Below, one piece after another: positions 1 to 41,123 of a DNA stretch of 52,604 nucleotides (its first letter is position 1; the number at the start of each line of letters is the position of its first letter). The stretch is from a virus. Taxonomy: Duplodnaviria > Caudoviricetes. The stretch lies in IMG/VR virus record IMGVR_UViG_3300030098_002800, positions 1-52,604 of that record; one strand, 5' to 3'. A program made the position numbers and the translations under genes. Under the pieces are notes generated by a model. It saw nothing but the letters and a program-made list of their open reading frames with translations. It was not told the DNA's origin and ran no database searches.

Positions 1-2254
1 CTACAGCTGAATCATCACTATCAGCTCTTATAATTTTAGACTTTGCCCACTTAGCATATTCAAAATGCAAATCTAATACAGAGTTATAAGCTATTCTACC
101 AGATGTATTTTCAATATAATTGTTTATCTTAGAATCAACTAAAGAGTTGTCACCTTTAAACTTCTCCAATAAATCAGCTCTAGTTACCTGATAACCTTCA
201 CCTTTTACATTCCTTATAGCCTCTACTTCAGCTTGAGATAACATTTTACGAGCAACATAATCATCACCAAGCTGTTTCATATTCTGAAAAGCTAAACCAA
301 AAGCAATTTTAAAAGTACCAGATCTATTCCAATCTTCAACAATTCTATGAGCCCAAGAAGTTTTTGTTGCTATTTGACTAACAGTTCTAGCTGCTTTAGC
401 ACTAACTTTTTCCTTACCTCTTATCTGCAACTCTCCATTCTGATCAACAAATAATTTACTATCAGTTAAATAAGCCTCATCTATAGCACCTCTTGTAGCA
501 GTACTAACGTCAGCATCGGATTTAAATATAGCATCTAAGACTGTAGATTTTACACTTTTACCATCATGCCATTGAAGACCATACTTTTTAGATTGTCTTT
601 CAAACATATCTTTGTTTGCACTAGCATTTCCTGACTCTACATACCAAGCTTTAGAATCCTTTCGTGCTTTACGCCCATACTCTGTCCATTCAAACAATCT
701 TTGTGTAGCATTTCTTGCAGCTGATCTTAGATTTCCTCCCATTAATCTAAAATAAGTATAAGATGTCATCATTCTAGTTAGATTCATCATGGTTCCATCT
801 TGACTAGGGTCTCTGCTATCAATAGAATTATAAACATCTGTTAACAAATCAAGCATACTTTCAGCAGTGTCTACTAAATCTTTTCTTCCTAAAGCTTCAG
901 CTGGCTTTAAATGATAATCCATTAAATTTTTACTAGCATCAATATACGTAGCCTTAACATGAGTCTTGTAATTAAAAGTTCCAACATCATTTGTATATTT
1001 CTTCAGAAAATACCAGGGGTTTGCACTATATTGATTGTCCACAAGGTCAGTTCTACCCTTAGCCCTATCAACTATCTTATCAAAGCTATTGATTTCTTGG
1101 TTAATAGTATCTAATATATTCTTGTTATTCTCTACAGCAAAAGAAAATTGTTTTACGATATCTAAAAGGCCTAACGTATATCTAGGCATATAGCCTTTAC
1201 TTAAAGAGATTTTTCCATTATTAACATAATCTCTATCTAATTTTATTCCTCTCTCTAGAAACATTCTATCATCAATAAGCTGCTGATCATTGTAATTTAA
1301 AGGCCTACCACTCTCATCAACTGACTTTTGAAACTCAATATTGTGTACCATGGCTTCAATTCTTTTTGCAACACCATCAGCCCAGACCATATCCTTTTGT
1401 TTAGCCATAGCTTTAATTTTTTGTAGCCCTCTAAGCAATGAAATTGAGGATGATTTTCTTATCTCTTTATAGTTGTCCATCATTTTATTTAATCTTATCT
1501 TTCCAGATCTATCTAAGCCTTCAATGGTATTTATATCTGCACCCTGAAGAACGCTATTAAGGATAACATATGCTTCCCCACTACCAGCCTCTAAAAACTT
1601 CAGCATTTCATTTCTATTGGTATTCATTTTATCTTTTATAGAAGTCCTTTGAGCATAGGTAAGTTTAGGTTGGTTATATTGTTTCACTAAAGAATCATAC
1701 TCTTTATTTAACCTCTCTACCTCAATATCACCTCCACTCTTCAAACCTTTAGGCATAAGACTTTTAGCACCAAAAGATAAAGAGAAATCCTTAAACTCAC
1801 TTAAAAATTCTTTTATCTGTTTATCTGATTGAACTTGAAAGTCTCTAAAGAACTGAGTTTCATTTGTAAGCTCAGTCTCAAATCTTTTTAATTCGGGAAC
1901 ATTTTGTAATGCTGTTCTTGGTAAATGAAAGTATCTCATTACAGCACCTTTAGGTTTTGCTATAAGCTGGTTGTAATAGTTAAGACCAGCTTCAAACTTC
2001 CTTACATCTTTAAAATTAATTTGATATTCTGGATCAATTTCCTTCTTTGTATATTTCTTAAACAACCATTTAAAAGTATCCCAGTTATTCCAGTTTGCAT
2101 CTTTAACATTATTCCATTTACCAGTATCCCACTCTTTAGCTAGTGAATCCATTTTATTGAAAATAATTTGCCTGTCTTTAGCAGACATTTCTTTTTCACC
2201 TAATCCTAACTTTTTTGAAAATGATTTCAAACTACATGTAAATATACTAGACAT
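1..2254 (-). CDS. Large internal virion/ejection protein, N-terminal part (runs off window start)
   Basis: Not in the ORF track. ATG at 2254 overlaps the stop of the 3008-aa gene (TAATG). Hand translation of sampled stretches is open: MSSIFTCSLKSFSKKLG..., GGNLRSAARNATQRLFEW, and ...HFEYAKWAKSKIIRADSDDSAV at position 1. Confidence 0.8.
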   Translation of the reverse strand, partial: MSSIFTCSLKSFSKKLGLGEKEMSAKDRQIIFNKMDSLAKEWDTGKWNNVKDANWNNWDTFKWLFKKYTKKEIDPEYQINFKDVRKFEAGLNYYNQLIAKPKGAVMRYFHLPRTALQNVPELKRFETELTNETQFFRDFQVQSDKQIKEFLSEFKDFSLSFGAKSLMPKGLKSGGDIEVERLNKEYDSLVKQYNQPKLTYAQRTSIKDKMNTNRNEMLKFLEAGSGEAYVILNSVLQGADINTIEGLDRSGKIRLNKMMDNYKEIRKSSSISLLRGLQKIKAMAKQKDMVWADGVAKRIEAMVHNIEFQKSVDESGRPLNYNDQQLIDDRMFLERGIKLDRDYVNNGKISLSKGYMPRYTLGLLDIVKQFSFAVENNKNILDTINQEINSFDKIVDRAKGRTDLVDNQYSANPWYFLKKYTNDVGTFNYKTHVKATYIDASKNLMDYHLKPAEALGRKDLVDTAESMLDLLTDVYNSIDSRDPSQDGTMMNLTRMMTSYTYFRLMGGNLRSAARNATQRLFEWTEYGRKARKDSKAWYVESGNASANKDMFERQSKKYGLQWHDGKSVKSTVLDAIFKSDADVSTATRGAIDEAYLTDSKLFVDQNGELQIRGKEKVSAKAARTVSQIATKTSWAHRIVEDWNRSGTFKIAFGLAFQNMKQLGDDYVARKMLSQAEVEAIRNVKGEGYQVTRADLLEKFKGDNSLVDSKINNYIENTSGRIAYNSVLDLHFEYAKWAKSKIIRADSDDSAV

Positions 2255-5200
2255 TATCTCTCCTTAGAATTTAAGCAATCTAAATGATATTTAAGTTGCC
2301 TTTGAGTAGAACTTTCTATCGATCCTTTTTCCCCTAAATCTTTCTTCCTAATGACATCTATATCCCTTAACAATGTAGGCTTTAATCCTATGTCATCTAT
2401 TCCACCAAGATCATTACTTGCATATATCTTCTGTGCCCATTGTTCATTTAAAGGGATGCCTTGGCTTTCCATTTCTTTACTAGCTTTATATAATAATGCT
2501 GGATCTACTAACTTATCAGAGGTAGCATAATCAACCATCATCTTCGCAGCATTCTTTTTATTAGCCTCTAATGCATTTTGCATATCATATATACTTTGAT
2601 TCAATATACTTTCTTGACTCATTATACCTTTTAAGCTAGCAGGTTCTGTGTATAAGTTAGCTAATGCTACATCTACATCATGACCATATCTAGAGCTTAA
2701 TATAACCATATTTTTTAAATTTGTAATATCAGTTAAAATCTTATTTGCAAAATCTTTATTGCCATCAGCACCTCTATATTCTCCAGATGCAATTTTAGCT
2801 AATAGATTCATCATAGGTCTATTTAATCCATTTTCAGAATATATATAATCGTAAGATGATTTGCCATTTGATATTGGTCTTACAGATACAACCTTATCAG
2901 ATATATAAGGAGTTAAAGTTTGTAAAATAAAAGCTGCTTTTCTTGCATCTGTATTTAAAACTGGATTGTTAAATAGAGCTTCATATATTGCAGACTGCTG
3001 CTCTAAAGAAAAATCTATATAATCAGCTTTAGTATTAGTTCTATCTGATTTCATTTCTATCAATCCTGCTTGCAATCTTTTATACTCAGGTATAATATAG
3101 TTCATTATATCATATGCTTTAACTTTAGTTGTTGCACCAAAATCATCAATATATACAGTTTCTCCAGCAAATGCTTCAAATAACATCCTCAAGTTGCTTT
3201 GTTCTGGACCTGTTACTTGGAACCTTCTTCCGTTAACAACTATTTTATCCCAATCATTTATCTTTAATTCATTAGTCTTGCCCTTTAAAATAACTTCTTT
3301 TATATTCCCTTTTCTATCTAGTATAACTTCATTCTGTGAAGCTGTATATTCACCTTCTTTAGCGTATCTTCCTTTCTTAACAATAGGCTGTTCAATAAAG
3401 TTATCTCTAAACTTGTAAGATAATGCTTCTTCCATTTTAGCTTTAAGCTCTACTATTCTTTCTAACTGTGCTTTTTTACTTGAGATCTCCGTAGATTCAC
3501 TAACATCCTTTGTTCTTGAGAATGACTCAAGCCTTTCAATTTCAATTCTAATAGACTTTTCTTTTGATGCAAGTTCAGTAAGAAATATAGCTCTAGATTC
3601 ATCTTTAACATACTCCTTTAAGGCTATATTAAATAATTTATTATGATTTGCTGCAGTATCTTCTCCCACATTATTCTTAGTATATCCATTCTCAATCCAA
3701 TCTTGTATCTTTTTATAGTCTGTACTTACCTTACTTACAAGCCCTATACTTTTAGCTTGTATCATTTCACTATGCCCTTTAGATAACTCTCTAACAGCTA
3801 CATCGTAAGGATTTCTAGATGTTGATCCAAAGTATTGACTTGCCACTCTTAGACCTGGCTCAAAATTTATACGACTATCTATGCCTCTTGTATCATCCCA
3901 TCTTAATTTATATGCTAAATCTTTGAATACGTTATGATAGTTTTCCACAGTGGCTTTATACTTCATTCCTGAAGGATCTTCTACAACACCTTTATTGTAT
4001 TTTAAATAATTATTAATAGGATCAATCAGTCTATTCCTTATAGCATCTCTTACAAATTGATATTCTCCCATATTTATATTTTTATCTTGGTGGACTGTAG
4101 TTGTTTTACCTTTTAAATCAACAGCAACTATTTCAAAAATACCTTGTACATCTTTAGTTCCAAATAAAATTTGATTTTGTATATCAGTTATATTGTTTTT
4201 TGTTTCCATTGAAGGTAAGTTTTTATATACATCAATAAACTCTTTTGCCATCTGAGATATACCATTAACAGTATTAGTTAATCCTGCCTTTCTGTTTATT
4301 CTAAGCTGTAATGTTTTTCTTTGACCTGTAACATCAGAAGTTTCAAAGCTTAGTAGATTTGTATCATGCCTGTATATATTAGATAGGTAGGTAACAAGTT
4401 GGTGCATTTTAATAAATCTTCCTCTTGCTTTGTTAACTTCGGTCAAGGTTCTTTCATAATCAAAATCAATACCTTCCCCTCCAGCTAAAAATGGCAGTTT
4501 ATTCGCAAGCCTTCCTTTTTGTATATCTGGACTAAATAATCCATCAGAACTTAAAATTGCATCCATATCTACAGGTGTTACAAATCCTGCTGCCTTACCT
4601 GCTTCTCTCCAGAACTTGCCAGGAGCAGCGTAAAAGCTAAAACTTTTATCAAAGTCAAAGTCAGCATCTTGAGGTCTAATAGCATCTACATAATTTATTC
4701 TACTTACATTTCCTTCTTCCATCTTAGCACTAGTAGTATAAGTACCATCAGCATTTTGCTTGGCATACATTTTATTTATAACAATATCACCTACCATATT
4801 TCTAGGTTGTCTGCTATTTAAAATACCTACACTTAAATCAACAGCATCTAGTTTTATAGCTGCTTGAGAAAGATTGTCTCCAAAGTCTATAAGGTCCATT
4901 CCTTTTTTATCTACTTCAATAGCATCATTGTAAGCCCTAACATTTCTTTTTACATTATATTGATCACCAAATTGAAGCTCCATAGTATCTATATCTAATA
5001 ATTTACCATCACTATTTAATAGCATACCCTCAACAAGAACATATTTTTTACCACCTATATCGTAAACAAAAGCATCTGCTGTTCTATCTACCCCTGTTTG
5101 ATCTACAGAATATTTTATTCTTTGAATAATAGCGTTGCTTTCAGTCATTCCGTCAGGTTTAATAAAATCTTTTTGAGCCATATAATGTGAGGGTAAATAC

Positions 5201-8200
5201 TCTCCGTAAAACTGAACAGTAGGTCTGCCTCCCACTTCACTTCTTATAGTTATATCTAAATTACCAGGATCTGCTGACATAACATCTAAAGAGCCTTGAG
5301 GTACAACTCCCCCAGCAACCCCTCCATTATTTATAAAGTAGTTTATCATTCCATTTTCTAACTCTCTAACAGCCCAAGGCTCAAGTATAATGCCATTCCT
5401 ATCAAGCATAGCTGCTATACCGCTATTAATTAATGCAGGGTCTCCTACTTTAGCTTGATGCCCAAATACTTTTTGAGCTAAAGAAGTTCTATATAAAATA
5501 TCGCTATACATTCTGCCAAAGTTTCCAAATAAATTCTCTACTTTTTTAGAAACTCCTATCCATTCAGCTATGCCATTATCGTGTGAAAAATGTACACCAG
5601 TATTTGCACCAACTAATGGATCATGTTCTTTAGATATAGTTCTTAAACTCATAGCCTCCCAAGGAAGCTCAGTTATATAATTACTATAATCGGCATCTAT
5701 ATTTTTAAAGTTGCCAGTAGCATCTTTCTCTACAATAAAATCAGTCCATAGACCAGTCATATTTTTATTATCTGCTTCTATGCCTTTTATATTAGCATAG
5801 TTTTCTCTTGTTTGAGAGTTTTTATCTGACTTTAATAAGTTTATTTTATTAGCTGATTTAAAAGTTAGAATATCAACTCCCAACTCTTTCATAACCATTT
5901 CAACAGCAGGATTATATTTAAATGCTGTTTTTCCAAACCACTCTTCCCCTCTTCCATAAGTAGGGCTATTTACATTATAGTCTATTTCAGCATGAGTAAT
6001 CGTTGGCTTTATAGCTCCAGATTTAAACCCTATAATCTTACCATTAGTATCCATATGGACCATATCTGGTGTAATCCCTATCAAAGACATGGCTGTCATA
6101 TAAGCTTCCTTGGTTAGGAACATTTCTCCATCAACAATTGATTTACCAACAGCCTCTAAATCTGCCTCCATAGCAGCTCTAGTATCGTCATCTATAAGTT
6201 TATTTTGTTTTAGCTTAAGCTTAGCTCTATTTATAGCACTAAATACATTATGAAGAGTTTGTTGTGTTAAACTATTTACACCTAAATCAGAATCTTTAAT
6301 CTCGTCATCTATAGATAATGTTTTTAATTTCCTGTACTCTCCAGATGCATCAGGTTCTATAAAAGTTTTTATATTATCATAAACCTGCTTCATAAAATCA
6401 GACTCAGCATTTCTATATATAGCAGCACTCCTAAGCATATTCTCTTTAGTAGCTATATAGCCATTCTTAGGTTCAGTTAATTTTAATCTCTTAAATCTAT
6501 CCAAAACAACAGCATGCTTTAAATCTATTTCACCAGAAGCAACAACATCAGGTAAAGACAAAGGCATATCTATTATCATTCTTGTCAATTTTATAGCATT
6601 GACAATATCATCAGGAGTGTCTGCATTTTGAACCTTTTTTAGCATAGCTCTAATTGCTCTATGTTGAGGAGAATTTATACTTAAGTCACCATCATATATA
6701 GCTTTTAACCTTTGATATAATTCTCCACCTTGAAACCCTGTAGATTCAGATGCATATTGTAATCTAACATGCTCATGAATAGATCCAGCACCTTTATCTG
6801 TTCTAATTATAATAGCAGTTGACTCGTCTATTGGAATAGCTTTGTATGTTTTGCCAAATTTACTTCCCCTGCTATCTTCATCCTGTATTTTACGATGATC
6901 TCCACTTGGACCTTCTTTATATATTTCTGCTTTACCAGGCATATTTCCTATTTCTAATTGACCGCTAGCTAAAGCACCATTAATTCTAGTTAAATGTTCT
7001 CCTACTATATCTATCTCTCTGCCATTTATATCTATAACAGATTTATCTGCTAAGTATATATTACCCTGCCCAGATGTATCAAGGTACTGTATAAGGGCCA
7101 TAATACCCCTATTTTGGGCATTTCCCATTATTTTCTGATCCAACATCAGTCTACCATTTTGAAGGTCTAATTTTAGCGTTTTTACAGGAACCTTAGAAAA
7201 GTATCCAGATACTAAAGAATAAACATCTGCATCAACTTGACCAGGTGTTGGCCTTTCAAACTCAGGCATATTCATTAATTTGCTTTCTATTGCTAATTTG
7301 ATTGGTTGAACTATAAAAGATTGAAAGTTATCTGGATCAAGCTTAACATCTCCTGCTAATTTATTTAAAGAATCAACAACTTTTTGGACAGATGCTCTCA
7401 TTTTAGGATCAACAGACTGAGGATCTGTATATAAATTACCTAATAATGTTTCGGCAAATCCGACAATTTCTTTTGAAGTTCTAACTATAGACCTATCAAT
7501 TCCTAGAATTTTGTCTATATAAGGTAAAGGCATATCATACTTAACTGAAAACTGAGAAGCAGTTATTCTTAAAGCTACATCTTGTAAATCTTTTTCAGGT
7601 ATTTCATTACCTCTATCTTTTAATATGTCTGCTACAGTATCTTTTAATGCACCTTGATTTCTTATTTCAGTGTGAACATCTTCTTCAATCTTTCTTTTAA
7701 TTTGATCTAGTTTATATATATACTCTTGTTTTGCTGTAGGGCTATTTTCCCTTGAATACATTTCTTCAATAAGAGCACTAACTTCTCCCTCTCTTTTAGC
7801 CAAAGCATCTAAATAAAGATAATTCCTGTCTGTTAGATTCTTTTTAATATCATCTATAATAGTATCAATTTCAGCTTTAGTATCTTTCCATGCCTCAAAT
7901 TGTCTTTTCCAGTTAGCTCTAACATCAGCTTCTATTTCACCCCCAGATGCTTCTATATATTTTGCAAGGCTTTCTATAATACTTCCTTGTCTATCAGATT
8001 GAGATTCAAGCACAGTTCTTATAGCTTCAGCTCTACTAGTTGACATACCTCTCATGGAATTTTGAGAAATGTTCCTAGCTTTATTTAATGCATTAAACCA
8101 ATCTCCTTCTTGTCCTTGAGCAAGATCATTCCTAAAATCAACTCTAAATCTAGATCTAGTTACATCATCTACAATCTTATCATAAAATTCCCACAATTGA

Positions 8201-11200
8201 TCTTTAGTTGTTTCACTAATCTTGTTATTTCTGTGATCAGCTTCAAGTCTTTGCTTCACTATAGTTCTGTCAGGGAGTACAACTGATCCTGTACCTTGCT
8301 GATAATTCATTCTAGTGTCTTGAATTAAACTAAATAAAGCCGCTTTGCCATCAATGCCCGTGTAAACATCATTCAATCCTATCTGATCAAATGCTTTATC
8401 TATATAGAACTCTTGAAACTTTTTAAACAACTGAGGCTCAATAAATATATTACCAACTCCCTTGTTTACAGCTTCAAATAACTGAACAGCTTCATTACCT
8501 GTTATAGCTTTTACCTCTCTATTGGTAATTGTAGGATCTAAATCTATTGTAGACTTATGAAAGTTTTCAACAAAGTTTAATAGGGTTGCTTCATCTATAC
8601 CTAATGTTTCCAATTTTTTACTTACAGCTGCTAAATCTGTAACTTTAGGTGCTAACATACTATTGAAATATTGTCTTTTAAAAGCACCTATATTGTTTTG
8701 TTCTATTGAAGTTAACCCTGAACCATTCCCATCAGTTAGCATATCAAATGTTCTTATTTGTTGATCTTTAACTAACAACCTATCAAACATAATATGCCAT
8801 GAGTTATTAATAGAAATATGAGGATCCATTTCAATCCCATGAGCTTTCCATGCATCTCCATATACAAGAGACATAAGATTTTCATTCATAGATACAAATG
8901 CATTTGCTGCCTCACGTTGTTTTTCTTTTGTAATCTCTACATCTTCTTTTCTAACTCTAGTACCAGGTTTAATCCAATTATTTTTTACACCTATATTCCA
9001 TAAAGCTGAGAAAGTATCCAATGGAACAGATCCACCAAAATCTATACCTCCCTCACCTTGCATTCTAATATCAGCTGCAGTAATACTTCTACCATCTTCA
9101 TTTTCTTTTATTAATCTTTCAAGTCCTAATGCTCTATATGTTTCTATAAAGTATTGTTTCATTAAAACTTGAGGTGCCTCTATAACATTAGCTAAAGATC
9201 TTTCTCTCCATGTCTTTAATTCAAAATCCCAGTTATGCTTTGTAAGAGTATTGCCATTAAATTGAAGGTTAGATAGTTTATTTGCTATATCAAAAGCTTC
9301 ATCTGGAGTAACTTTTTCAAGATGAGATTTATCAACAGCGTTTGTATGAAACTCATTTAATATTTTTTCAGCTACAAACAATTTATCGTATGATGCAAAG
9401 GCTTCTTCAATGCTAATTTCTTTATTTAAAAGCTTATCTCCTATATACTTATTAAAGGCAGTTTTGAAATCAGCAAATCCTGGACCAACTCTATTTTGAT
9501 TTCCTTCTATAGTTTTTAGTATCATTCTAATATTGCTAAGTTCAGGAGATTTATTTAATACTAATTTTGTTATTGCTGTAGTTACAGGCTCTATACCGCC
9601 TTCAGGTTGATAAGCAAAGTTGCCCATTACTTTATAGAGTTTATCATTTTCTACTCCATAAGTTTCAAGCGATCCAAGAGTTCTTCTTAATTTATTTTGT
9701 TTTGCATTGTAATAATCCTGAACTTTGCCAGTCTCAAAGATTCTATTAAATAATTTACCATCAGCTTCCAAATGAAAACTATGAGGTCTTTTTGAAAAGT
9801 AAGCCGCTGTCATAATATTAGATGCTATTTCAGGCCATGAGTTTCCAAAGGCAGCTTTCATAGATTCTGCACTCCATCCATTATGGTATCCAGACCTTAT
9901 AACACCAGGGGCATTCATCGCTACTATACCAGCAAACATCCTAGGTAAAGAACCAAAGAAATCTTTTCCAAACTCACTAAGCCAAGCACCTGGAGCTTCT
10001 TTCATAAACTTAACTCTAGCTTCCATTAAAAAATCTTTCATTAATTTTGTACCTTCATCATCAGATTTTCCAATCCACCATTTAGATCCTAAGCTAGCCC
10101 ACTTATTACCCATACCTGAGTTTAAATAACCACCAGCTATTTCATCCATAGCAGTTAATTGAATTTGTAATTCTTTATTTGAAAGCTTATTGATATTTGT
10201 AGTCCTAGCATTAAACATGGATTTTACTGTCTTCCCAAATTGCCTCATATGGCTTTTTGATGTACCCCCTTTAATCATATGAGTTGGGCCTAATATACTC
10301 ATCCATGCACTTTCAAATACAGCAGTTGAACCCCATGCCCCTAAAGATGACATAATATTAAAGCTATAATCTTTTAATTTTGTAGCTTTGCCATACATAC
10401 CTGCTTCATATCCATATATATTCCTTTGCATTTCATGTACAGCATGCCTTATAGTGCCCATAGTAAATCCTATAGCAGCATCGTAAGCCATAGCCCCAGC
10501 AACAGCATGAGTTTTAGGCCCACCAATAGGCAACCATCTTTGAGCTGCTAAGTTTAAAATAGTTTGTGCTTCTCTTGGATTATTCTTTGAAATAATATCA
10601 AAAGTAGTATTGGCTATATCATCTACAATAGCATCATCTACAATGCCTAAAGTTTTTTGTATATTGCTTTTAATACCAGTTTTAACTGCACCTTCATATA
10701 AGACTCCTAATGCTTCATTACCACCTTGAATTAGATCTTGAGTGTCAGATGCAACTTTAAATGCATCATCCATTATAGTTTTAGCTACATCATCAGTTAA
10801 GCTTGTACCTATATCTATTCCTTTCTTTACAGCTATTTTAGATCCTTCTTCAACTAACTCTGTTGCAGCTTTTTTAGATGCATATTTAGTAGCAGCTTTA
10901 GTTCCTATTGCAGTTATTCCTGCCTTTGTTAAAGCTCCTCCTGCAAAGAATGTAGGTATTTGACCAAGAGCAGTACCTAAAGAATAACCCCATCTACCAG
11001 CAGTCCCTAAATCTTCCCAATCACCAGCTACATTATCACCAAAAGTTCCAGCAATCTTATCTTGAAAATCTTCAGCAGGAACTAATTGATCAGATTCTAG
11101 TTCATTCCATGTATCATGAACGCCTAATGTCCCCATAGAAACTTGGTCAGAAACTGCCCATGCTGCTTGTCCTAAAAATTCCCATATAGTATTTCTATTT

Positions 11201-11280
11201 CTACGAAGGTCATCTACAGTTTGTTGATGGGTTTCTTCTTCTATTATAGCCGCTATTCTATCGAGTTCTTGTTGATTCAT
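2254..11280 (-). CDS. Giant virion protein, probable virion-encapsidated two-barrel (DPBB) RNA polymerase
   Basis: 3008 aa. LNSRQPR followed ~45 aa later by DADFDFD resembles beta' NR(A/Q)P...NADFDGD and the DFDxD of crAss-like vRNAPs. Lys motifs upstream (KPTIT, GKTAFK, FKSANK). Hydrophobic Gly/Ala-rich N-terminus. Lies in the ejection-protein cluster. Confidence 0.8.
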   Translation of the reverse strand: MNQQELDRIAAIIEEETHQQTVDDLRRNRNTIWEFLGQAAWAVSDQVSMGTLGVHDTWNELESDQLVPAEDFQDKIAGTFGDNVAGDWEDLGTAGRWGYSLGTALGQIPTFFAGGALTKAGITAIGTKAATKYASKKAATELVEEGSKIAVKKGIDIGTSLTDDVAKTIMDDAFKVASDTQDLIQGGNEALGVLYEGAVKTGIKSNIQKTLGIVDDAIVDDIANTTFDIISKNNPREAQTILNLAAQRWLPIGGPKTHAVAGAMAYDAAIGFTMGTIRHAVHEMQRNIYGYEAGMYGKATKLKDYSFNIMSSLGAWGSTAVFESAWMSILGPTHMIKGGTSKSHMRQFGKTVKSMFNARTTNINKLSNKELQIQLTAMDEIAGGYLNSGMGNKWASLGSKWWIGKSDDEGTKLMKDFLMEARVKFMKEAPGAWLSEFGKDFFGSLPRMFAGIVAMNAPGVIRSGYHNGWSAESMKAAFGNSWPEIASNIMTAAYFSKRPHSFHLEADGKLFNRIFETGKVQDYYNAKQNKLRRTLGSLETYGVENDKLYKVMGNFAYQPEGGIEPVTTAITKLVLNKSPELSNIRMILKTIEGNQNRVGPGFADFKTAFNKYIGDKLLNKEISIEEAFASYDKLFVAEKILNEFHTNAVDKSHLEKVTPDEAFDIANKLSNLQFNGNTLTKHNWDFELKTWRERSLANVIEAPQVLMKQYFIETYRALGLERLIKENEDGRSITAADIRMQGEGGIDFGGSVPLDTFSALWNIGVKNNWIKPGTRVRKEDVEITKEKQREAANAFVSMNENLMSLVYGDAWKAHGIEMDPHISINNSWHIMFDRLLVKDQQIRTFDMLTDGNGSGLTSIEQNNIGAFKRQYFNSMLAPKVTDLAAVSKKLETLGIDEATLLNFVENFHKSTIDLDPTITNREVKAITGNEAVQLFEAVNKGVGNIFIEPQLFKKFQEFYIDKAFDQIGLNDVYTGIDGKAALFSLIQDTRMNYQQGTGSVVLPDRTIVKQRLEADHRNNKISETTKDQLWEFYDKIVDDVTRSRFRVDFRNDLAQGQEGDWFNALNKARNISQNSMRGMSTSRAEAIRTVLESQSDRQGSIIESLAKYIEASGGEIEADVRANWKRQFEAWKDTKAEIDTIIDDIKKNLTDRNYLYLDALAKREGEVSALIEEMYSRENSPTAKQEYIYKLDQIKRKIEEDVHTEIRNQGALKDTVADILKDRGNEIPEKDLQDVALRITASQFSVKYDMPLPYIDKILGIDRSIVRTSKEIVGFAETLLGNLYTDPQSVDPKMRASVQKVVDSLNKLAGDVKLDPDNFQSFIVQPIKLAIESKLMNMPEFERPTPGQVDADVYSLVSGYFSKVPVKTLKLDLQNGRLMLDQKIMGNAQNRGIMALIQYLDTSGQGNIYLADKSVIDINGREIDIVGEHLTRINGALASGQLEIGNMPGKAEIYKEGPSGDHRKIQDEDSRGSKFGKTYKAIPIDESTAIIIRTDKGAGSIHEHVRLQYASESTGFQGGELYQRLKAIYDGDLSINSPQHRAIRAMLKKVQNADTPDDIVNAIKLTRMIIDMPLSLPDVVASGEIDLKHAVVLDRFKRLKLTEPKNGYIATKENMLRSAAIYRNAESDFMKQVYDNIKTFIEPDASGEYRKLKTLSIDDEIKDSDLGVNSLTQQTLHNVFSAINRAKLKLKQNKLIDDDTRAAMEADLEAVGKSIVDGEMFLTKEAYMTAMSLIGITPDMVHMDTNGKIIGFKSGAIKPTITHAEIDYNVNSPTYGRGEEWFGKTAFKYNPAVEMVMKELGVDILTFKSANKINLLKSDKNSQTRENYANIKGIEADNKNMTGLWTDFIVEKDATGNFKNIDADYSNYITELPWEAMSLRTISKEHDPLVGANTGVHFSHDNGIAEWIGVSKKVENLFGNFGRMYSDILYRTSLAQKVFGHQAKVGDPALINSGIAAMLDRNGIILEPWAVRELENGMINYFINNGGVAGGVVPQGSLDVMSADPGNLDITIRSEVGGRPTVQFYGEYLPSHYMAQKDFIKPDGMTESNAIIQRIKYSVDQTGVDRTADAFVYDIGGKKYVLVEGMLLNSDGKLLDIDTMELQFGDQYNVKRNVRAYNDAIEVDKKGMDLIDFGDNLSQAAIKLDAVDLSVGILNSRQPRNMVGDIVINKMYAKQNADGTYTTSAKMEEGNVSRINYVDAIRPQDADFDFDKSFSFYAAPGKFWREAGKAAGFVTPVDMDAILSSDGLFSPDIQKGRLANKLPFLAGGEGIDFDYERTLTEVNKARGRFIKMHQLVTYLSNIYRHDTNLLSFETSDVTGQRKTLQLRINRKAGLTNTVNGISQMAKEFIDVYKNLPSMETKNNITDIQNQILFGTKDVQGIFEIVAVDLKGKTTTVHQDKNINMGEYQFVRDAIRNRLIDPINNYLKYNKGVVEDPSGMKYKATVENYHNVFKDLAYKLRWDDTRGIDSRINFEPGLRVASQYFGSTSRNPYDVAVRELSKGHSEMIQAKSIGLVSKVSTDYKKIQDWIENGYTKNNVGEDTAANHNKLFNIALKEYVKDESRAIFLTELASKEKSIRIEIERLESFSRTKDVSESTEISSKKAQLERIVELKAKMEEALSYKFRDNFIEQPIVKKGRYAKEGEYTASQNEVILDRKGNIKEVILKGKTNELKINDWDKIVVNGRRFQVTGPEQSNLRMLFEAFAGETVYIDDFGATTKVKAYDIMNYIIPEYKRLQAGLIEMKSDRTNTKADYIDFSLEQQSAIYEALFNNPVLNTDARKAAFILQTLTPYISDKVVSVRPISNGKSSYDYIYSENGLNRPMMNLLAKIASGEYRGADGNKDFANKILTDITNLKNMVILSSRYGHDVDVALANLYTEPASLKGIMSQESILNQSIYDMQNALEANKKNAAKMMVDYATSDKLVDPALLYKASKEMESQGIPLNEQWAQKIYASNDLGGIDDIGLKPTLLRDIDVIRKKDLGEKGSIESSTQRQLKYHLDCLNSKER

Positions 11281-12117
11281 TTATTCTTCCCAGGATATAG
11301 TTTTATTTTTTACATATTCATTTAATTGTTCTAGATCTATATGCCTTAAAGCATCGTCTAATTTACTATGTTTTACTAATTTTACAGAATCTTTTTGCTC
11401 TTCAATTGCTTTATTGTAATCAGCAATCGCATCGGATGCTTCATGGTATTTTGGATCTTTATCAATTTTATTCATATCTTTATATGTTTGATCTATTTTA
11501 GTTTCTATATCTTTAATAAAGTCAGGATATCCAATGCCTGGATAATTTGGATTTGTTGATGCTAACCCCCATGTTTCTATTTTATCTGTACCTTCTTCTC
11601 TAAACCAGTCAACCCATCCAGCCCCTATTTGTGTGCTAAGGGCAATAAAGGCTGTAACAGGATTTTCCCAAGGGCTTCTAGTTTCAGGATTTTCTACATA
11701 AGACTTTACAGCTGTTCTGTGTTGATCTATAAGATTTCTTCTCCGATCCTTAATGCTTTTAACTTTTTCATTTCTTTCTTCTATTAAGGCTATATCTTCC
11801 TCGCTAAAAGAAGAATCTATTTTGTCTTGCAAGTCATCTATTTCACTAAAGCGTTTTAAAAGGATTGCATTAGAAACTTGAGGATGAAATTCATAACCAG
11901 TTACTGAAGGAGTATCCATTAAATCCTCAAACATAACTTTATTAAAATGAGATCTTACGCTTGGATCATCTAAGACTTTCTTAAAATTATAATTACTGTT
12001 ATACATTTTTTGATACCATTCCCATTTTTCATCATAAGTATCAAATTTAGATAGATTTTTATCTAGAAGTTTTATAGCTTTTTCTTTATTTAAATTACTC
12101 ATTAATTTTGCAACCAA
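11281..12117 (-). CDS. Putative internal virion protein
   Basis: 278-aa helical ORF directly upstream of the giant gene; function from position only. Confidence 0.55.
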   Translation of the reverse strand: MVAKLMSNLNKEKAIKLLDKNLSKFDTYDEKWEWYQKMYNSNYNFKKVLDDPSVRSHFNKVMFEDLMDTPSVTGYEFHPQVSNAILLKRFSEIDDLQDKIDSSFSEEDIALIEERNEKVKSIKDRRRNLIDQHRTAVKSYVENPETRSPWENPVTAFIALSTQIGAGWVDWFREEGTDKIETWGLASTNPNYPGIGYPDFIKDIETKIDQTYKDMNKIDKDPKYHEASDAIADYNKAIEEQKDSVKLVKHSKLDDALRHIDLEQLNEYVKNKTISWEE

Positions 12118-13637
12118 GCTTTATCATCATTCAGCCATTCTAATTTACTTTCATACCCCTTTGCTTTTAACTCACTTTCAAGAGTTCCTTCAGATTCTTT
12201 ATAAGCAAGCATATCTTCTCTTTCCTCCATACTCATTAATTCAAACTCTCCTGGCTCCATATTTAGGTTTTCAGCTATTTCAATCCACCAATCAGGATAA
12301 GCTTCAGCTCCAAATAAATTCTTCCATTCATCTGGATTTTCATTATTTCCTGAATTATCTTCAGGGCTTATAAGGGGAGCTAAGTCAGCTTCTATAATAT
12401 GCTTACTCATACCTTCCATATTCTTATAAAATTCTTGAATATCTAAATTAGTCCCATTGTATTTTTTATGCAGTTCATTTATTTTATCAGCTTTATTTTG
12501 ATCTCCTGCTTGTATCGCTGTATTCCAAGCTTTGTATGATTGTTCTACTTGTTCAAAATAATCTCCAAAGTCACCTGTTGTTGCAGCTGTTTTTCCTTGG
12601 GCTGTAAATACACCGATCTTATAAGTCTCATAAAATTTCATTAAAGCTTGTTTAGCTTTAGGGCTCATTCCACTTAAATCCCCATATTGTATACCATATC
12701 TCATAAGTGCATACTCAGATGCAATGGCTAATTTTTTATTATCAATTATGGTTGAGATTTCTTGAACATCTTGATTGTTGGTTATCATTGTATTTTTCAG
12801 ATCTTCATCTTTAAATATTTGACCTATTCCAGTATTTGCCATAGAAACATTTACTTTGTTACCAAGGAAATTTTTAGTCTGCCTTACTGCATTGTTTAAA
12901 GATTTATCTCCACCACCTTTCATATAGTTTATTCTTGCTTCTTTGTACTCCTTATCAAGAACAGTAGTTTGCAATTCTTCTAATTGTTTATTTATAGCTC
13001 CACTCGCTCTATCAAAATAACTTTCAACCCAAGGCTTAGCATCACCATGTATTTCTTCAAATGCTTCTAACCCTAAGTCTGCAGCATCCCATGCTTCAGG
13101 ATCTGTACCACCTGCCATTCCTGCACCACCTTGCATTATTGCAGTTGCTTTGGCTATATCTTCATATAAAGCCCCTTCAAGTAAATCTATTTTATTTTTT
13201 ATAGCCCTAGTTTTATCATTATTAAATTGTATTCGATCTTCAATGTCACTCATATCCCCTTCATAACTAGTATCTAATATTTCAAGAGAATTATTACTGG
13301 TTTTATATAAATCTTGCAATCCTCCAAGGCCACCTGTAGTTTTATGAAATTCAGTTTCTAATCTATCTAATGATGCTTGAGCCTCATCCTGATCGTCTTC
13401 ACTTTCTTTTAACAGATCGTACCCAAGCTGAATCTTTAACTTACGCTCCATAATATCCTGATCGTATTGCTGCTTTTCTTTTAGAAGCCTTTCTTCTCTT
13501 GCCCATGTTTCTTTTCTTATTCTATCTTCCCTTCCTGTACGAGCTCCTAATTCTGCATACCTTAAAAGAAGATCAGGAAGTTCATCCCAAAATTCTGACA
13601 TTGCTGATTTTTCTATTGTCCAATTTACTTTAGCCAT
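12102..13637 (-). CDS. Putative internal virion/ejection protein
   Basis: 511 aa, coiled-coil rich, AGGAG RBS; position after the tail nozzle gene. Confidence 0.6.
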   Translation of the reverse strand: MAKVNWTIEKSAMSEFWDELPDLLLRYAELGARTGREDRIRKETWAREERLLKEKQQYDQDIMERKLKIQLGYDLLKESEDDQDEAQASLDRLETEFHKTTGGLGGLQDLYKTSNNSLEILDTSYEGDMSDIEDRIQFNNDKTRAIKNKIDLLEGALYEDIAKATAIMQGGAGMAGGTDPEAWDAADLGLEAFEEIHGDAKPWVESYFDRASGAINKQLEELQTTVLDKEYKEARINYMKGGGDKSLNNAVRQTKNFLGNKVNVSMANTGIGQIFKDEDLKNTMITNNQDVQEISTIIDNKKLAIASEYALMRYGIQYGDLSGMSPKAKQALMKFYETYKIGVFTAQGKTAATTGDFGDYFEQVEQSYKAWNTAIQAGDQNKADKINELHKKYNGTNLDIQEFYKNMEGMSKHIIEADLAPLISPEDNSGNNENPDEWKNLFGAEAYPDWWIEIAENLNMEPGEFELMSMEEREDMLAYKESEGTLESELKAKGYESKLEWLNDDKAWLQN

Positions 13638-13645
13638 ATAATCTC

Positions 13646-14272
13646 CTAGGTGTAGCTAGATCCACTATCTTTTATTTTCATTGGCTTTCCTCCATACAAT
13701 AAAGAAAAAGCCCCCATATCTCTTGCATTAAGCATTTTTTGTGTGGGTAATGCTCCACCCATTTTAAATACATTATTACCTAAATCAGTAACATATCCTT
13801 TAGTACCATCATCATCTAAAAGCATTCCAGTTGTTCGGTCTTTAAAAGGTTTATCATCTACATACATTATATCTCCATAAACATATGCATTACTTGGTAT
13901 TCTTTCTTTTGTTTTAATGTAAGCATTCATAACTCTTTTATAGTCAAGTGGGTCTGTATTAGACATTGTTAAATCTACCAAGACATTATTCTTTACCAAG
14001 GATTCATTTAGATTCGCTAAAAATATTTCTTCCATTCTTTCAGATGCTTGGTCATCAATGTTTGGATTTACTAATAATATATCTATATCATTAGTTGCTC
14101 TTTCAGGGAAAGATCCCCATAGATATGCATCATAATCTTTAACAAGGTCTGAGTTTAAAAAGCTTCTAGCCCATCCTTTGTAATAATCTACATTAGGATA
14201 TCTTCTATTTACACTTTCATTGAAATTTCCTAACCTTACATTGTTAAACTTTCTAGCTTTTTCTATAGCCAT
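13646..14272 (-). CDS. Pol-beta superfamily nucleotidyltransferase-like protein
   Basis: YLWGSFPERATNDIDILL fits the hGS...DxD motif; a candidate third acidic residue in VLVDL. Confidence 0.6.
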   Translation of the reverse strand: MAIEKARKFNNVRLGNFNESVNRRYPNVDYYKGWARSFLNSDLVKDYDAYLWGSFPERATNDIDILLVNPNIDDQASERMEEIFLANLNESLVKNNVLVDLTMSNTDPLDYKRVMNAYIKTKERIPSNAYVYGDIMYVDDKPFKDRTTGMLLDDDGTKGYVTDLGNNVFKMGGALPTQKMLNARDMGAFSLLYGGKPMKIKDSGSSYT

Positions 14273-14295
14273 AACTATTTAAATCCTTTTGTATT

Positions 14296-15021
14296 TTAAA
14301 TTGACGGACCATCTGCGTGTTGATCTTGATAATCATAATCATCTTGCTCATAAAAATCATCTTGACCAGTATCATATACGTCATGAATTTCTTCTTCTTG
14401 AGTAAAATCATCAGTATCTCCTGGGGTAGGTTGATATGCTATTGAGGCAGAACCTCCACCATCACCATCACCCCCATCTAATACTGTTCCTTGACCAAAA
14501 CCTTCAAAATCAAGTGCTTCCATTGCAGATAAACTTTTATATAATTCAGAAACATAATCTTCTCTAACGCCAGCAATATCAGTTTCAAGTTTATCAGCTC
14601 TAGATATAATTGAACGATCTAATTGCGATTGCACTCTTCTTCTTGCCTTTGCTTTTGAGTAGGTGGTATCTCCAACTAATCCTGAAGTTATATTCTGCTT
14701 ATAGGCATCTGTAGAAAAACTCATCCATGCATCTGATGCTTGTCCAGATAAAGAAGCTATTCCACCTTGATATGCTTTGCCTAATCCAATTTCGTCAGAA
14801 GGATCATATGGCCTTAAATATCCAGCAGCTTGACTTAAATCATCTTGTGTTCCTGAAAATCCTAGCCAATTAATCATTTCTGAACCAGTTCCTTCATAAC
14901 TTATAACATCCCATGCAGATGGACCTTGGTCTGTACCTTGCCACCACTCTTGCCCACCATAAGGATCTGTAGGATCAGGTGGTGCATATCCACCTCCACC
15001 GCCTGGTTGATCTCCATTCAT
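14296..15021 (-). CDS. Acidic, Gly-rich putative ejection protein
   Basis: 241 aa with low-complexity acidic termini; located in the ejection cluster. Confidence 0.55.
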   Translation of the reverse strand: MNGDQPGGGGGYAPPDPTDPYGGQEWWQGTDQGPSAWDVISYEGTGSEMINWLGFSGTQDDLSQAAGYLRPYDPSDEIGLGKAYQGGIASLSGQASDAWMSFSTDAYKQNITSGLVGDTTYSKAKARRRVQSQLDRSIISRADKLETDIAGVREDYVSELYKSLSAMEALDFEGFGQGTVLDGGDGDGGGSASIAYQPTPGDTDDFTQEEEIHDVYDTGQDDFYEQDDYDYQDQHADGPSI

Positions 15022-15023
15022 TA

Positions 15024-15746
15024 TTAACCTCCTTCTACTATTTCAGTTGGAACTTTAAAATCAGGAACAAAGCCATGACTCCATGTATATGCTCCTTCAC
15101 CTATAGCATCATATAAAACTGGAGAATCTGCTACTGTTGTAAATTCAGGATAAGCTAAATTTGGGTCATAAGAAACAGAAGCTCCAGCTTCACCTACAAT
15201 AGATGCAGGGGTATCTCCTCCAAACCATTTGTTATAAGGGTTTCCACCAAAAGCAAACGTAGACAAACCTCCTTTAAATCCACTCATAAGGGCTTGATTT
15301 GCATACATTTTTTCAATATCCAATTCAGCTTGGTCGCCTGCCTCTTCTATGTCTTCAATAGATTCTATAAGTTCTTTTGAGCCTTCTCTAGCCCAAAAGT
15401 AATCACTTTTATCTACTTTGTCTTCCCAGCCTTCCAAGCCTTCAACATCGCCATAGAAATAATCAGCGGCACCTGCTCCAGCATAATACCCTAATCCTGC
15501 TCCAGCAAAAGATGCTGCACTTTGAACTAAAAGGCTTGAACCTGCAGTAAAATAAGCTGCAGCAAGAGTTCCTATTATACTTCCTATAGATCCCCACATG
15601 CTAGTTGATTCTTGCTTTTCACTGTATTCCCGCTGCATTCTTTCAGCTTCATCTTTTACATATTGAGTATCTTCTTTAAGATCTAAATATTCCTGCTCTG
15701 CATCTTCTTTCATCATTAAGGAATAATAATCAAATCCATTTGCCAT
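15024..15746 (-). CDS. Putative ejection (pilot) protein with membrane-interacting segment
   Basis: Hydrophobic Gly/Ala stretch WGSIGSIIGTLAAAYFTAG...AGAGLGYYAG, as in podovirus small ejection proteins. Confidence 0.6.
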   Translation of the reverse strand: MANGFDYYSLMMKEDAEQEYLDLKEDTQYVKDEAERMQREYSEKQESTSMWGSIGSIIGTLAAAYFTAGSSLLVQSAASFAGAGLGYYAGAGAADYFYGDVEGLEGWEDKVDKSDYFWAREGSKELIESIEDIEEAGDQAELDIEKMYANQALMSGFKGGLSTFAFGGNPYNKWFGGDTPASIVGEAGASVSYDPNLAYPEFTTVADSPVLYDAIGEGAYTWSHGFVPDFKVPTEIVEGG

Positions 15747-15760: not shown

Positions 15761-16108
15761 TTATTTTATCCCATTCTGGGCTAACTTTTCTATAATATCT
15801 GATATTATATTTTTTAATTCATTTGATAAGGTTATATTGCTAGCATCATCACTAGCATCTGCACTTACAGGCTTAGTTAAAGTTCTGTATCCAGCACCCC
15901 CAACACTACTTCTAGGTGTACCTTTTTTAGCCTTAGAAAGCTTTGTTTTGTACAAATCTTGCCCTAATCTAGTATATAAATATACGGAACCTCCTTCAGA
16001 AGTCAAAACTAAATCTCCTTCCAATACTTCAGTTATTGCTGGAAATTGATATTTTAATGCCATTTTATTTTGCTTTCTATTTAAAAGCCTTCTTACTTCA
16101 GGATCCAT
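15761..16108 (-). CDS. Hypothetical virion-associated protein
   Basis: 115 aa, translationally coupled to the nozzle gene. Confidence 0.6.
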   Translation of the reverse strand: MDPEVRRLLNRKQNKMALKYQFPAITEVLEGDLVLTSEGGSVYLYTRLGQDLYKTKLSKAKKGTPRSSVGGAGYRTLTKPVSADASDDASNITLSNELKNIISDIIEKLAQNGIK

Positions 16109-39109: not shown

Positions 39110-39481
39110 ATGAGCCTGAAAATGCCAAGACAATGGAGCAAGAGAGTACGTGTAGAGAACGAAGCAACAGAATTAAAGCAAGACAAGAAAGATCCTATCG
39201 CTATGGCTACTACAGCAGCAGTCATTAGAGCTATTAATGAAAAGGATACAGAGTTCTTAGCTGATCTACAAGTAGTAGGTAAGATGTTCAATGTATCAAA
39301 CCCAACACCAGCAGGGCAAACAGCTATGGGTAGAGTAACAAGAACTACACTTACTGATGCTAGTGGTGCTGAGCATGTCATTGATGACGATCCAGCATTG
39401 GTTAGTAGTTATACTCAAAGTGGTATGACAATAACTAAAACTGAATCTTGTGTACTGTATGACGATGGTACTGTAAGATAA
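39110..39481 (+). CDS. First early gene, hypothetical
   Basis: 123 aa, AGGAG RBS. Confidence 0.75.
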   Translation: MSLKMPRQWSKRVRVENEATELKQDKKDPIAMATTAAVIRAINEKDTEFLADLQVVGKMFNVSNPTPAGQTAMGRVTRTTLTDASGAEHVIDDDPALVSSYTQSGMTITKTESCVLYDDGTVR

Positions 39482-39496
39482 TTGTTGTGTTTGTGG

Positions 39497-39526
39497 TATT
39501 AGGGGAGATTAATTTCTCCCTTAATA
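39497..39526 (+). terminator. Hairpin after first early gene
   Basis: TATTAGGGGAGA...TCTCCCTTAATA inverted repeat. Confidence 0.6.
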
Positions 39527-39660
39527 TTGTTAAGTAATGTATTAGTTCTCTTTTAAATATCCTAACGGGCTTGTGTGTATGTAATAATATATATACCAAC
39601 ATATACCAAACATAACCTATATTTTTTTTATAATTACAATCTTAACCAAAGGAGATTTAC

Positions 39661-39918
39661 ATGGAATCTAAATGGATTACAATAGCTGATAAGCTTATTA
39701 ATACTGAGAATCTTAACAGTTGTGAGGTATGGAAAAGTCCTTCCGATATTTGGTATCTTATTCTTGAATTTGGTGATAAATACCAAAAACAGATTAAGAT
39801 TACTAAAGGCGAAGATGCTGCTTATGATATATTAAAGACACTAAAAGTATATCTTAACTCTTTTACAATAGCAAGACCTTTGCAAATAGAAGAGAGTGAG
39901 TTAGCTCATAATGATTAA
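39661..39918 (+). CDS. Early hypothetical protein
   Basis: 85 aa, AAGGAG RBS. Confidence 0.75.
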   Translation: MESKWITIADKLINTENLNSCEVWKSPSDIWYLILEFGDKYQKQIKITKGEDAAYDILKTLKVYLNSFTIARPLQIEESELAHND

Positions 39919-39960
39919 ATATTAGGGGTAGCAGTTAATCCTGTTGCCCTTATATTTTTT
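39919..39960 (+). terminator. Intrinsic terminator
   Basis: TAGGGGTAGCAG-TTAATC-CTGTTGCCCTTA followed by a T-run. Confidence 0.7.
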
Positions 39961-39975
39961 GAAAGAATTAAACTT

Positions 39976-40195
39976 ACGGTTTAGTAGTGTAATAACTTGA
40001 AAGTGATTTAATAGTTAGTATTAATATATAAAAAGCTATTACAGTAGCAAGGTTGACATCTAGCTGTAACTGGATCAAATGGTCAACAAGTATGTTAGAA
40101 AGCTACTAGATTGCTAGTAGGGCTATGTCTTTAAGGCGTTGGGAACACTGTAGGGTTTGATCCTATAAATGATGGTTTGAATCCATCCGACCGAA
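39976..40195 (+). tRNA. Degenerate tRNA-Gln(TTG)-like element with ~148-nt insert in the D-loop
   Basis: 5' part ACGGTTTAGTAGTGTAAT. 3' part GGAACAC-T-GTAGG-GTTTGAT-CCTAT-AAAT-GATGG-TTTGAAT-CCATC-CGACCGA. D-stem GTGT/ACAC and acceptor CGGTT/GACCG pair only across the insert. Confidence 0.55.
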
Positions 40196-40241
40196 ATAAT
40201 TAAATAATTAAACTATAACTAACTAAGGAGGGCTAATAATT

Positions 40242-40523
40242 ATGCCTTGGTATATAATACTTAAAGATGTCTTTTTACCTGAGAAATGGCAAACAAACCC
40301 ATTTAAGACAGAAGGACAAAGAAAATCTGCATACGATGTTTATATGCGAGAAAAAGAGAGTCATTGGAGAACAGTTGAAAAGTTACAAGAATGTATCAAT
40401 AAACTTGAAAAGAAATATGCTAAGGTATTATTTACAAATGATAAATTAGTGACTGAGAATAATTACTTAAAAAGTATGTCATTCTTTCAGCTTATCAAGT
40501 GGTATTTTAAAAGAAACAATTAA
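40242..40523 (+). CDS. Early hypothetical protein
   Basis: 93 aa, AAGGAGG RBS. Confidence 0.7.
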   Translation: MPWYIILKDVFLPEKWQTNPFKTEGQRKSAYDVYMREKESHWRTVEKLQECINKLEKKYAKVLFTNDKLVTENNYLKSMSFFQLIKWYFKRNN

Positions 40524-40546
40524 CCTATAACAACCAAGGAGATATT

Positions 40547-40666
40547 ATGACATACATAGAAATACAAGCTCTAATGCCTGATATTGATTGGGATAGAGTA
40601 GCTATAAACTATGCTATACTAGATTGTATTGCTGATAATTATTACAACATAATACTGGAGGTTTAA
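40547..40666 (+). CDS. 39-aa early peptide
   Basis: Not in the track. AAGGAG RBS; MTYIEIQALMPDIDWD... Confidence 0.55.
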   Translation: MTYIEIQALMPDIDWDRVAINYAILDCIADNYYNIILEV

Positions 40667-40667
40667 T

Positions 40668-40942: not shown

Positions 40943-40952
40943 CGATAAGTAA

Positions 40953-41105: not shown

Positions 41106-41123
41106 TAACTAACCAAAGGAGAC

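Follow-up and report, generated by a model that had tools for sequence, protein, structure and literature searches.

The giant gene, its conserved residues and its predicted fold

The window analyzed here is the whole 52,604-nucleotide stretch of IMG/VR virus record IMGVR_UViG_3300030098_002800 (Duplodnaviria; Caudoviricetes), from an uncultured marine phage of ~53 kb. A giant gene on the minus strand (2254..11280) is open for 3008 codons from its ATG. An original prediction made from the sequence alone had proposed that its product is a virion-packaged RNA polymerase (RNAP) with a two-barrel active site, and this protein and its neighbors are the subject of the analysis. The giant gene is tightly, translationally coupled to its neighbors: its ATG directly follows the stop codon of the upstream open reading frame (ORF), its TAA shares one base with the ATG of the next gene, and AAGGAG occurs within its last codons. 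The next gene encodes a protein of ~1000 amino acids (aa), the first 751 aa of which are present at this end of the record (2..2254, minus strand, running off base 1). Of 50 related loci, 45 have this downstream protein encoded beside the giant gene.

Both motifs named in the original prediction were located where it had placed them: LNSRQPR spans aa 2154-2160 (nt 4801-4821) and RPQDADFDFDK spans aa 2202-2212 (nt 4645-4677). Within them, R2157-Q-P2159 (4804..4812, minus strand) forms an R-x-P motif 48 aa before the Asp triad, and D2205-A-D2207-F-D2209-F-D2211-K2212 (4645..4668, minus strand) forms the putative metal-binding loop, comparable to NADFDGD of beta-prime and GSDFDIDK of crAss-like phage enzymes. 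D-x-D-x-D occurs only once in the giant protein. At this length and composition 1.24 occurrences of DxDxD (0.047 of DFDxD) are expected by chance; the motif alone therefore proves little, and its weight comes from conservation.

A word-seeded search retrieved 38 homologs of about 1700-3070 aa, and a HMMER scan of 1.84 billion representatives retrieved 88 proteins (representatives at the 50% clustering level) that formed one family with no known polymerase among them. Fifty related IMG/VR contigs were also used. The motif alignment comprised 68 rows, 67 of them covering the Asp site, at 19-49% overall identity. R2157, P2159, D2207, D2209, D2211 and K2212 were identical in 67/67 aligned homologs, and all 42 complete giant ORFs on the 50 related contigs carried the motif. 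Thus, the putative catalytic signature, R-x-P followed by D-x-D-x-D-K, was invariant throughout the aligned family. Position 2208 was Phe in 58 rows, Tyr in four, His in three and Asn in two. Position 2210, the Gly of cellular DFDGD, was Phe (36), Leu (14), Met (13), Tyr (2), Trp (1) or Ile (1) and was Gly in 0/67 rows.

The loop showed two further features. D2205 (4666-4668), present in 68/68 rows, is a fourth invariant Asp at the Asn site of cellular NADFDGD, giving D-A-D-F-D-x-D, where crAss enzymes have G-S. One homolog (P0063) carried an insertion of ~120 residues between the R-x-P strand and the Asp loop (aligned aa ~2176-2180), which shows that the R-x-P-to-Asp loop tolerates a whole extra domain.

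Near-invariant residues were concentrated between aa ~1390 and ~2420, most of them within the polymerase core (aa 1380-2560; 3601..7143, minus strand). Lysine motifs upstream of the Asp loop, also anticipated by the original prediction, were found as K1758, K1784 and K1812 in 64/64 sequences covering that stretch; K1758-P1759, K1784-T1785 and F1807/S1809/K1812 were conserved in 62-64 of the 64. These lysines lie in a beta-rich segment that is the candidate beta-like double-psi beta-barrel (DPBB-A, aa ~1741-1817; 5830..6060, minus strand). The R-x-P and Asp motifs are flanked by the strands of the putative beta-prime-like barrel (DPBB-B, aa ~2150-2216; 4633..4833, minus strand). A long conserved helix (aa 2275-2302; 4375..4458, minus strand) containing R2286 and KMHQ (2291-2294) is a candidate bridge or duplex-binding helix.

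According to the available part of PMC2919709 (Ruprich-Robert and Thuriaux), eight residues are invariant in all two-barrel RNAPs: three Asp, R-x-P, two basic residues, and one Asp of the beta-like barrel. R-x-P lies ~40-50 residues before the Asp loop (Rpb1 R446/P448; QDE-1 R962/P964), the basic pair is K979/K987 in Rpb2 and R738/K743 in QDE-1, and the Asp of the beta-like barrel is D837 in Rpb2 and D709 in QDE-1 (PMC2919709). Five of the eight were found outright in the giant protein (D2207, D2209, D2211, R2157 and P2159). The three invariant lysines are candidates for the basic pair. The best candidate for the barrel-A Asp is D1717, just upstream of DPBB-A; other near-invariant Asp residues are D1659 and D1947.

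An AlphaFold2 model of aa 1380-2560, built from a 33-row alignment, had a mean predicted local distance difference test (pLDDT) of 81.4 and a predicted template modeling score (pTM) of 0.78. In a Foldseek search of this model against the PDB, the sole match at E<=1e-3 was 6VR4_A (E 2.3e-8, probability 1.00), the virion RNAP gp66 of crAss-like Cellulophaga phage phi14:2. Ranks 2-10 were chains of QDE-1, followed by weaker matches to RDR2, Pol I A190 and the Thermus-phage polymerases P74 gp62 and P32 gp64. Against predicted viral structures (BFVD), 31 matches were found at E<=1e-3. The top four were unnamed viral proteins (best E 7.8e-26, TM-score 0.56), and most named matches were segments of giant proteins of crAss-like phages. 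Strands were predicted at aa 2150-2157 and 2166-2171, then came the Asp loop and a strand at aa 2212-2216, an order that fits a beta-prime-type barrel.

The predicted fold of the core therefore matches gp66, QDE-1 and RDR2. Both barrels appear to be present at the level of fold search, their topology being taken from the matches. The two-barrel RNAP proposed by the original prediction is upheld by this comparison, in which the core matched two-barrel RNAPs and essentially nothing else, and by the invariance of the motif in homologs; the check by AlphaFold and Foldseek that it had suggested returned phi14:2 gp66 first and QDE-1 second. Neither of the two outcomes it had named against itself, a lack of barrel fold near the motif or a lack of motif conservation, was encountered at that level. 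An N4-type (T7-like single-subunit) RNAP was rejected: no Pfam domain of that kind was found on the protein, and no T7-like or N4 chain was among the structural matches.

The N-terminal region (aa 1-1379; 7144..11280, minus strand) is predicted to be all-alpha, with the first 560 aa rich in Gly and Ala. The original prediction had seen hydrophobic helices in this part and had suggested that it may help form a conduit for DNA delivery. A mean Kyte-Doolittle hydropathy of about 1.6 over 19 residues is the usual threshold for transmembrane segments. The highest 19-residue mean in aa 1-1400 was 1.22 (aa 259-277), so that no segment was of transmembrane grade and a conduit role is not supported. 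A model of aa 1-1200 was all-alpha (pLDDT 77.5, pTM 0.52), and a Foldseek search with it against the PDB gave 0 matches at E<=1e-3 and only helical-repeat noise. No similarity between the N-terminal region and gp67 of phi14:2 was found by hhalign. In the ESM Atlas both the N-terminus and the downstream protein matched unnamed viral clusters only; faint leads to LPD22, LPD14, LPD38, LPD39 and P22 gp16 were set aside, as Pfam gave no confirmation.

Terminal cysteines of the giant protein and of crAss-like cargo proteins

The giant protein contains a single Cys (C3002; codon 2275..2277, minus strand), 7 residues from its C-terminus, compared with ~31 expected over 3008 aa from the other ORFs. Exactly one Cys was found in 50 of 51 database homologs longer than 2800 aa and in 42/42 complete locus ORFs; the exceptional homolog had two Cys, at an aberrant short C-terminus. 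In every giant homolog counted (51 database and 42 locus ORFs) a Cys lay within the last 7 residues. Over the last 200 aa of a 37-row alignment, the sole invariant columns were the terminal Cys and one Tyr. The downstream protein mirrored this arrangement at its other end. All 44 of its homologs examined had exactly one Cys, at residue 3-11, and in the first 220 aa this was the only invariant column. Here the residue is C7 (codon 2234-2236, minus strand), the sole Cys in the first 751 aa.

The five ORFs that immediately precede the giant gene (278, 511, 208, 241 and 240 aa; 11281..15746, minus strand) contained 0 Cys in 1478 aa and are candidate ejection or cargo proteins. Runs of 1-4 Cys-free ORFs preceded the giant gene in the twelve relatives inspected. 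Pooled over all loci, Cys content was 0.31% in same-strand upstream ORFs vs 1.27% in ORFs on the opposite strand. The coliphage N4 proteins gp50, gp51 and gp52, described as ejection proteins in the available text of PMC13434306, together contained 0 Cys in 4294 aa, compared with 12 in the 859 aa of the N4 DNA polymerase. Since the N4 ejection proteins are Cys-free, Cys avoidance marks proteins known to exit the capsid via the tail, and runs of Cys-free ORFs may be usable as a marker of ejected proteins.

End cysteines were also found in crAss-like phages, among triplets whose orthology was checked by BLASTP. In phi14:2, gp67 (1797 aa) has one Cys, its last residue (C1797); gp66 (2180 aa) has C3 and C2179; and gp65 (1421 aa) has C3 only. 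In crAss001, gp47 has C2339 of 2341 residues, gp50 has C5, C1334 and C2404 of 2412, and gp49 has C5. In DAC17, _56 has C2220 of 2222 residues, _58 has C5, three internal Cys and C2265 as its last residue, and _57 has C4 and C619. Among 120 homologs of the crAss-like virion RNAP, a Cys was found in the first ten residues in 115, in the last ten in 114, at both ends in 110, and at any internal position in 16. Flavobacterium phage FpV4 gp32 (4287 aa) has a single Cys at 4286, and the next protein, gp33, has Cys3. Each C-terminal Cys thus has a counterpart near the N-terminus of the protein encoded by the following gene. If partners are fused in one polypeptide, as in the giant protein and FpV4 gp32, the corresponding Cys pair is absent, as if a peptide bond and a disulfide were interchangeable between cargo partners.

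The simplest reading of this pattern is that single terminal Cys may join the cargo proteins of two-barrel virion RNAP modules head to tail by disulfides, a proposal that we put forward tentatively and regard as possible rather than likely. For crAss-like phages this predicts a gp67-SS-gp66-SS-gp65 chain, and for the present family a disulfide between the giant protein and the downstream protein. In the virion there would then be a single linear chain of 4000-5400 residues, otherwise free of Cys. This chain would thread through the tail in a set order and come apart when reduced in the cytoplasm of the host. Metal bridging, anchoring to the portal or tail, and a covalent adduct are other possible readings of the end Cys. 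A complex prediction with the last 200 aa of the giant protein and the first 220 aa of the downstream protein scored 0.24, against a mark of 0.32, and speaks neither for nor against binding.

In the literature, no description of the terminal-Cys pattern of crAss cargo proteins was found. The available text of the gp66 preprint (10.1101/2020.03.07.982082) mentions neither cysteine nor disulfide, the same holds for the accessible portion of the N4 paper (PMC13434306), and the only disulfides described in the available part of the crAss001 atlas are those linking tail-hub and ring proteins. The end-Cys pattern is newly described here and is the most testable outcome of the analysis; if the proposal is true, the pattern makes the ordering and ejection of megadalton cargo testable in cultured phi14:2, crAss001 and DAC17.

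Genome context and proposed function

The record consists of one contig that is classed as linear, with a CheckV completeness of 94%, in agreement with the size of ~53 kb given by the original prediction. An ORF at 52002..52604 (minus strand) encodes the C-terminal ~200 aa of the downstream protein and aligns with residues ~806-1000 of its homologs. One ~1000-aa gene is therefore split between both record ends, with ~50 codons missing at the junction, and the ‘linear’ record is a permuted, nearly complete genome, from a circle or a concatemer copy.

The minus-strand structural arm runs from TerL (35698-37251) through the portal (32474-34777; PHROG family 156), the major head protein (MCP, 29873-31483; PHROG family 1328), tail-fiber-like genes and a gene for an 842-aa protein to the giant gene at its far end. 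The 842-aa protein (16108..18636, minus strand; 7 Cys) is internal-virion-protein-like, with a weak match to phrog_511 (E 6e-6). The plus-strand arm (39110..51873), presumed to be early or replication-related, contains an HNH endonuclease, an ocr-like anti-restriction gene (43895-44230), ERF and a primase-helicase. Among the ORFs scanned in this arm, none was recognized as a DNA or RNA polymerase, and a scan of all ORFs of at least 500 aa revealed no second polymerase in the genome. No tRNA genes were found in the record. A metallo-phosphoesterase gene (19688-20473, minus strand; phrog_221, E 3e-25) lies within the structural arm, and phi14:2 likewise has metallophosphatase genes (g063 and g075) in or beside its structural arm.

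The best matches of TerL, at ~25% identity, were T7-, N4- and CRP-4-type terminases, and no long-tail genes were found among the ORFs scanned. Together with the weak phrog_511 match, these findings make the podovirus assignment of the original prediction plausible but indirect. The portal and MCP belong to PHROG families other than those of phi14:2 (6547 and 11589), and BLASTP found no similarity between the portal and MCP and their phi14:2 counterparts. At the sequence level the phage is not detectably a crassvirus, and its head module is not of the crAss type. Ribosome-binding sites of the GGAG/AGGA type preceded 38 of 67 ORFs, compared with a background of 8%. Strong Shine-Dalgarno use is unlike that of Bacteroidota phages and argues for a host outside the Bacteroidota, in contrast to crAss-like phages. 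No relative, and hence no clue to a host or prophage, turned up in a pattern scan of 185,579 species genomes.

Taken together, the giant protein is probably a single-chain two-barrel DNA-dependent RNAP that is packaged in the virion, ejected, and transcribes the plus-strand arm; its C-terminal Cys may pair with the next protein. Its packaging and ejection are probable by analogy with known virion RNAPs and are supported because the gene closes the structural arm and because of the Cys-free block and the end-Cys pattern. Expression of the giant gene would be late, along with that of the structural genes, and its product would enter the capsid together with the downstream protein and the Cys-free upstream proteins. 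Its C-terminal Cys would pair with the N-terminal Cys of the next protein, giving a linear chain in the oxidized virion. On infection the giant protein would thread through the tail and enter the host before the DNA or along with it. In the host cell the RNAP would read the genes of the plus-strand arm (anti-restriction, recombination, primase-helicase) without need of the host polymerase, which would take over the structural arm, as in phi14:2.

Several observations weigh against this reading. Within the model, the residues immediately preceding the Asp motif, aa 2203-2206, had pLDDT values under 50, and the global TM-scores to 6VR4 were low (0.30 and 0.18). D1717 was Asp in 53 and Asn in 11 of 64 sequences. 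Searches with the sequence of the giant protein gave only a sub-threshold PBC hit in Pfam, 0 PHROG families, and coiled-coil noise by phmmer and profile search against PDB sequences. Against gp66, BLASTP found nothing and hhalign gave a probability of 1.4%; the core profile compared with a profile of 41 crAss-like virion RNAPs gave a probability of 0.3%. The non-crAss head module makes the analogy with crAss biology weaker than the fold match suggests. No promoter motif, repeat or hairpin family stood out on the plus-strand arm, where 65 sigma-70-like sites were counted vs 72.8 expected from shuffles.

Two motif-sized local alignments with crAss enzymes were obtained. One lay at DFDxDK (E 1.3e-3, probability 19%), and the other, a weak one, placed GFKSGAIKP opposite K1065/G1067 of gp66, with K1753 facing K1065 (E 3.7e-3, probability 9%). 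Membership of the gp66 sequence family was rejected, as no BLASTP, hhalign or profile-profile similarity extended beyond such motif-sized stretches. For cultured phages, tblastn with aa 1400-3008 as the query gave no match in 50,697 phage records. Since no sequence method links the giant protein to gp66 and the head genes are not crAss-type, we regard the giant protein as the founder of its own sequence family among single-chain two-barrel RNAPs, in a phage lineage of its own. The literature search yielded no account of the family; the 23 RNAP families in Supplementary Data 3 of PMC10770324, a source available in part, could include it.

The strongest alternative is a real two-barrel RNAP that does not travel in the virion. 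Synthesized in the infected cell, it would serve in middle or late transcription, make primers or use RNA as template, along the lines of P23-45 gp64 or QDE-1. The fold match is blind to the distinction between virion and non-virion enzymes, with QDE-1, RDR2 and P74 gp62 all among the matches, and a replication-linked role would suit a genome in which no DNA polymerase was found. This explanation is nonetheless unlikely given the location of the gene, which is coupled to its neighbors at the distal end of the structural arm, the Cys-free block resembling N4 ejection proteins, the end-Cys pattern shared with crAss proteins proven by proteomics to be in virions, and a size of 3008 aa, whose ~1400 extra N-terminal residues are typical of cargo fusions.

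Less probable still is an ejection or structural cargo protein carrying a catalytically dead, polymerase-like relic. Such a relic could explain why a bulky residue replaces the DFDGD Gly in 67/67 sequences and why the putative barrel-A Asp is Asn in 11/64. It fits poorly with the three Asp, R-x-P and three Lys that are invariant at 19-49% identity, a pattern of purifying selection on catalysis, and with the activity of crAss gp66, which has Ile at the Gly position (10.1101/2020.03.07.982082, as far as that text was available). That the giant protein replicates the genome as a PolD-like two-barrel DNA polymerase or primase is very improbable: the two-barrel superfamily does include PolD (PMC10770324, in the part available) and no DNA polymerase gene was found among the scanned ORFs, but no PolD was among the PDB matches listed, every polymerase match was an RNA polymerase, and the gene is grouped with virion genes and not with the primase-helicase and ERF on the other arm.

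The crAss enzymes have Ile or Val at the Gly position, and the loop conformation in the gp66 crystal is inactive (available text of 10.1101/2020.03.07.982082). By analogy only, the bulky residue in the giant protein could indicate an active-site loop that depends on activation, as the original prediction had suggested for its Phe.

Two-barrel virion RNAPs have been experimentally shown for phi14:2, a crAss-like phage, and for P23-45. The giant-protein family, which is of considerable size and which standard annotation missed entirely, would extend this strategy to marine phages of ~50-60 kb with a non-crAss head and strong ribosome-binding sites. Its set of invariant residues is compact enough to define a minimal single-chain core.

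Comparison with known systems

The closest known system is gp66 of phi14:2 (6VR4; orthologs crAss001 gp50 and DAC17_58), the best structural match, which is likewise a single chain with both barrels. Both proteins have DFD-[hydrophobic]-DK (DFDIDK in crAss) where cellular enzymes have DFDGD, R-x-P upstream, and about 800 residues after the Asp loop. In both phages the structural arm closes with this gene and other very large ones beside it, the phi14:2 order being TerL, portal, MCP, tail genes and then g067-g066-g065. Both proteins are nearly Cys-free, with a C-terminal Cys facing the N-terminal Cys of the next protein. Unlike gp66, the giant protein lacks an N-terminal Cys and has ~850 extra N-terminal residues that show no similarity to gp67. 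The phi14:2 genome is also larger (~100 kb vs ~53 kb) and its portal and MCP fall in different PHROG families, and strong Shine-Dalgarno use distinguishes the present phage.

FpV4 gp32 (4287 aa) is likewise a giant protein in a two-protein layout, and its residues ~1890-3120 are gp66-like (BLASTP E 2e-25). It differs in that gp32 is related to gp66 by BLAST and the giant protein is not, in a genome of 88 kb, and in one internal Cys in gp33. FpV4 is a cultured non-Crassvirales phage in which gp32 (5916-18779) is annotated merely as ‘virion structural protein’.

The second tier of matches comprised QDE-1 and RDR2 (2J7N, 7Y7*, 7ROZ; E ~1e-2, probability 0.84-0.93), which are also single-chain two-barrel enzymes. 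The spacing from R-x-P to the Asp motif is 43 aa in QDE-1, similar to the 48 aa of the giant protein. These enzymes differ in having a DYDGD-type loop with Gly, a cellular role in eukaryotic RNA silencing, a length of about 1000-1400 aa, and no virion context.

N4 gp50 (Schitoviridae) resembles the giant protein in its size of ~3000-3500 aa, its location at the end of the late arm, and its ejection with companions for early genes, as described in the available part of PMC13434306. In addition, gp50 is Cys-free, and TerL of the present phage is distantly similar to N4-like terminases. In contrast to the giant protein, gp50 has a T7-type single-subunit fold and no end Cys, and it was absent from the structural matches.

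Thermus phage P23-45 gp96, in turn, combines a two-barrel virion RNAP and a large delivery protein, the tape measure, in one fusion (available text of PMC10770324). Its relatives P74 gp62 and P32 gp64 were weak structural matches to the giant protein (E 0.15-0.5). P23-45 gp96 differs from the giant protein in its DFDGD loop with Gly, its siphovirus setting, its tape-measure fusion and a much weaker match.

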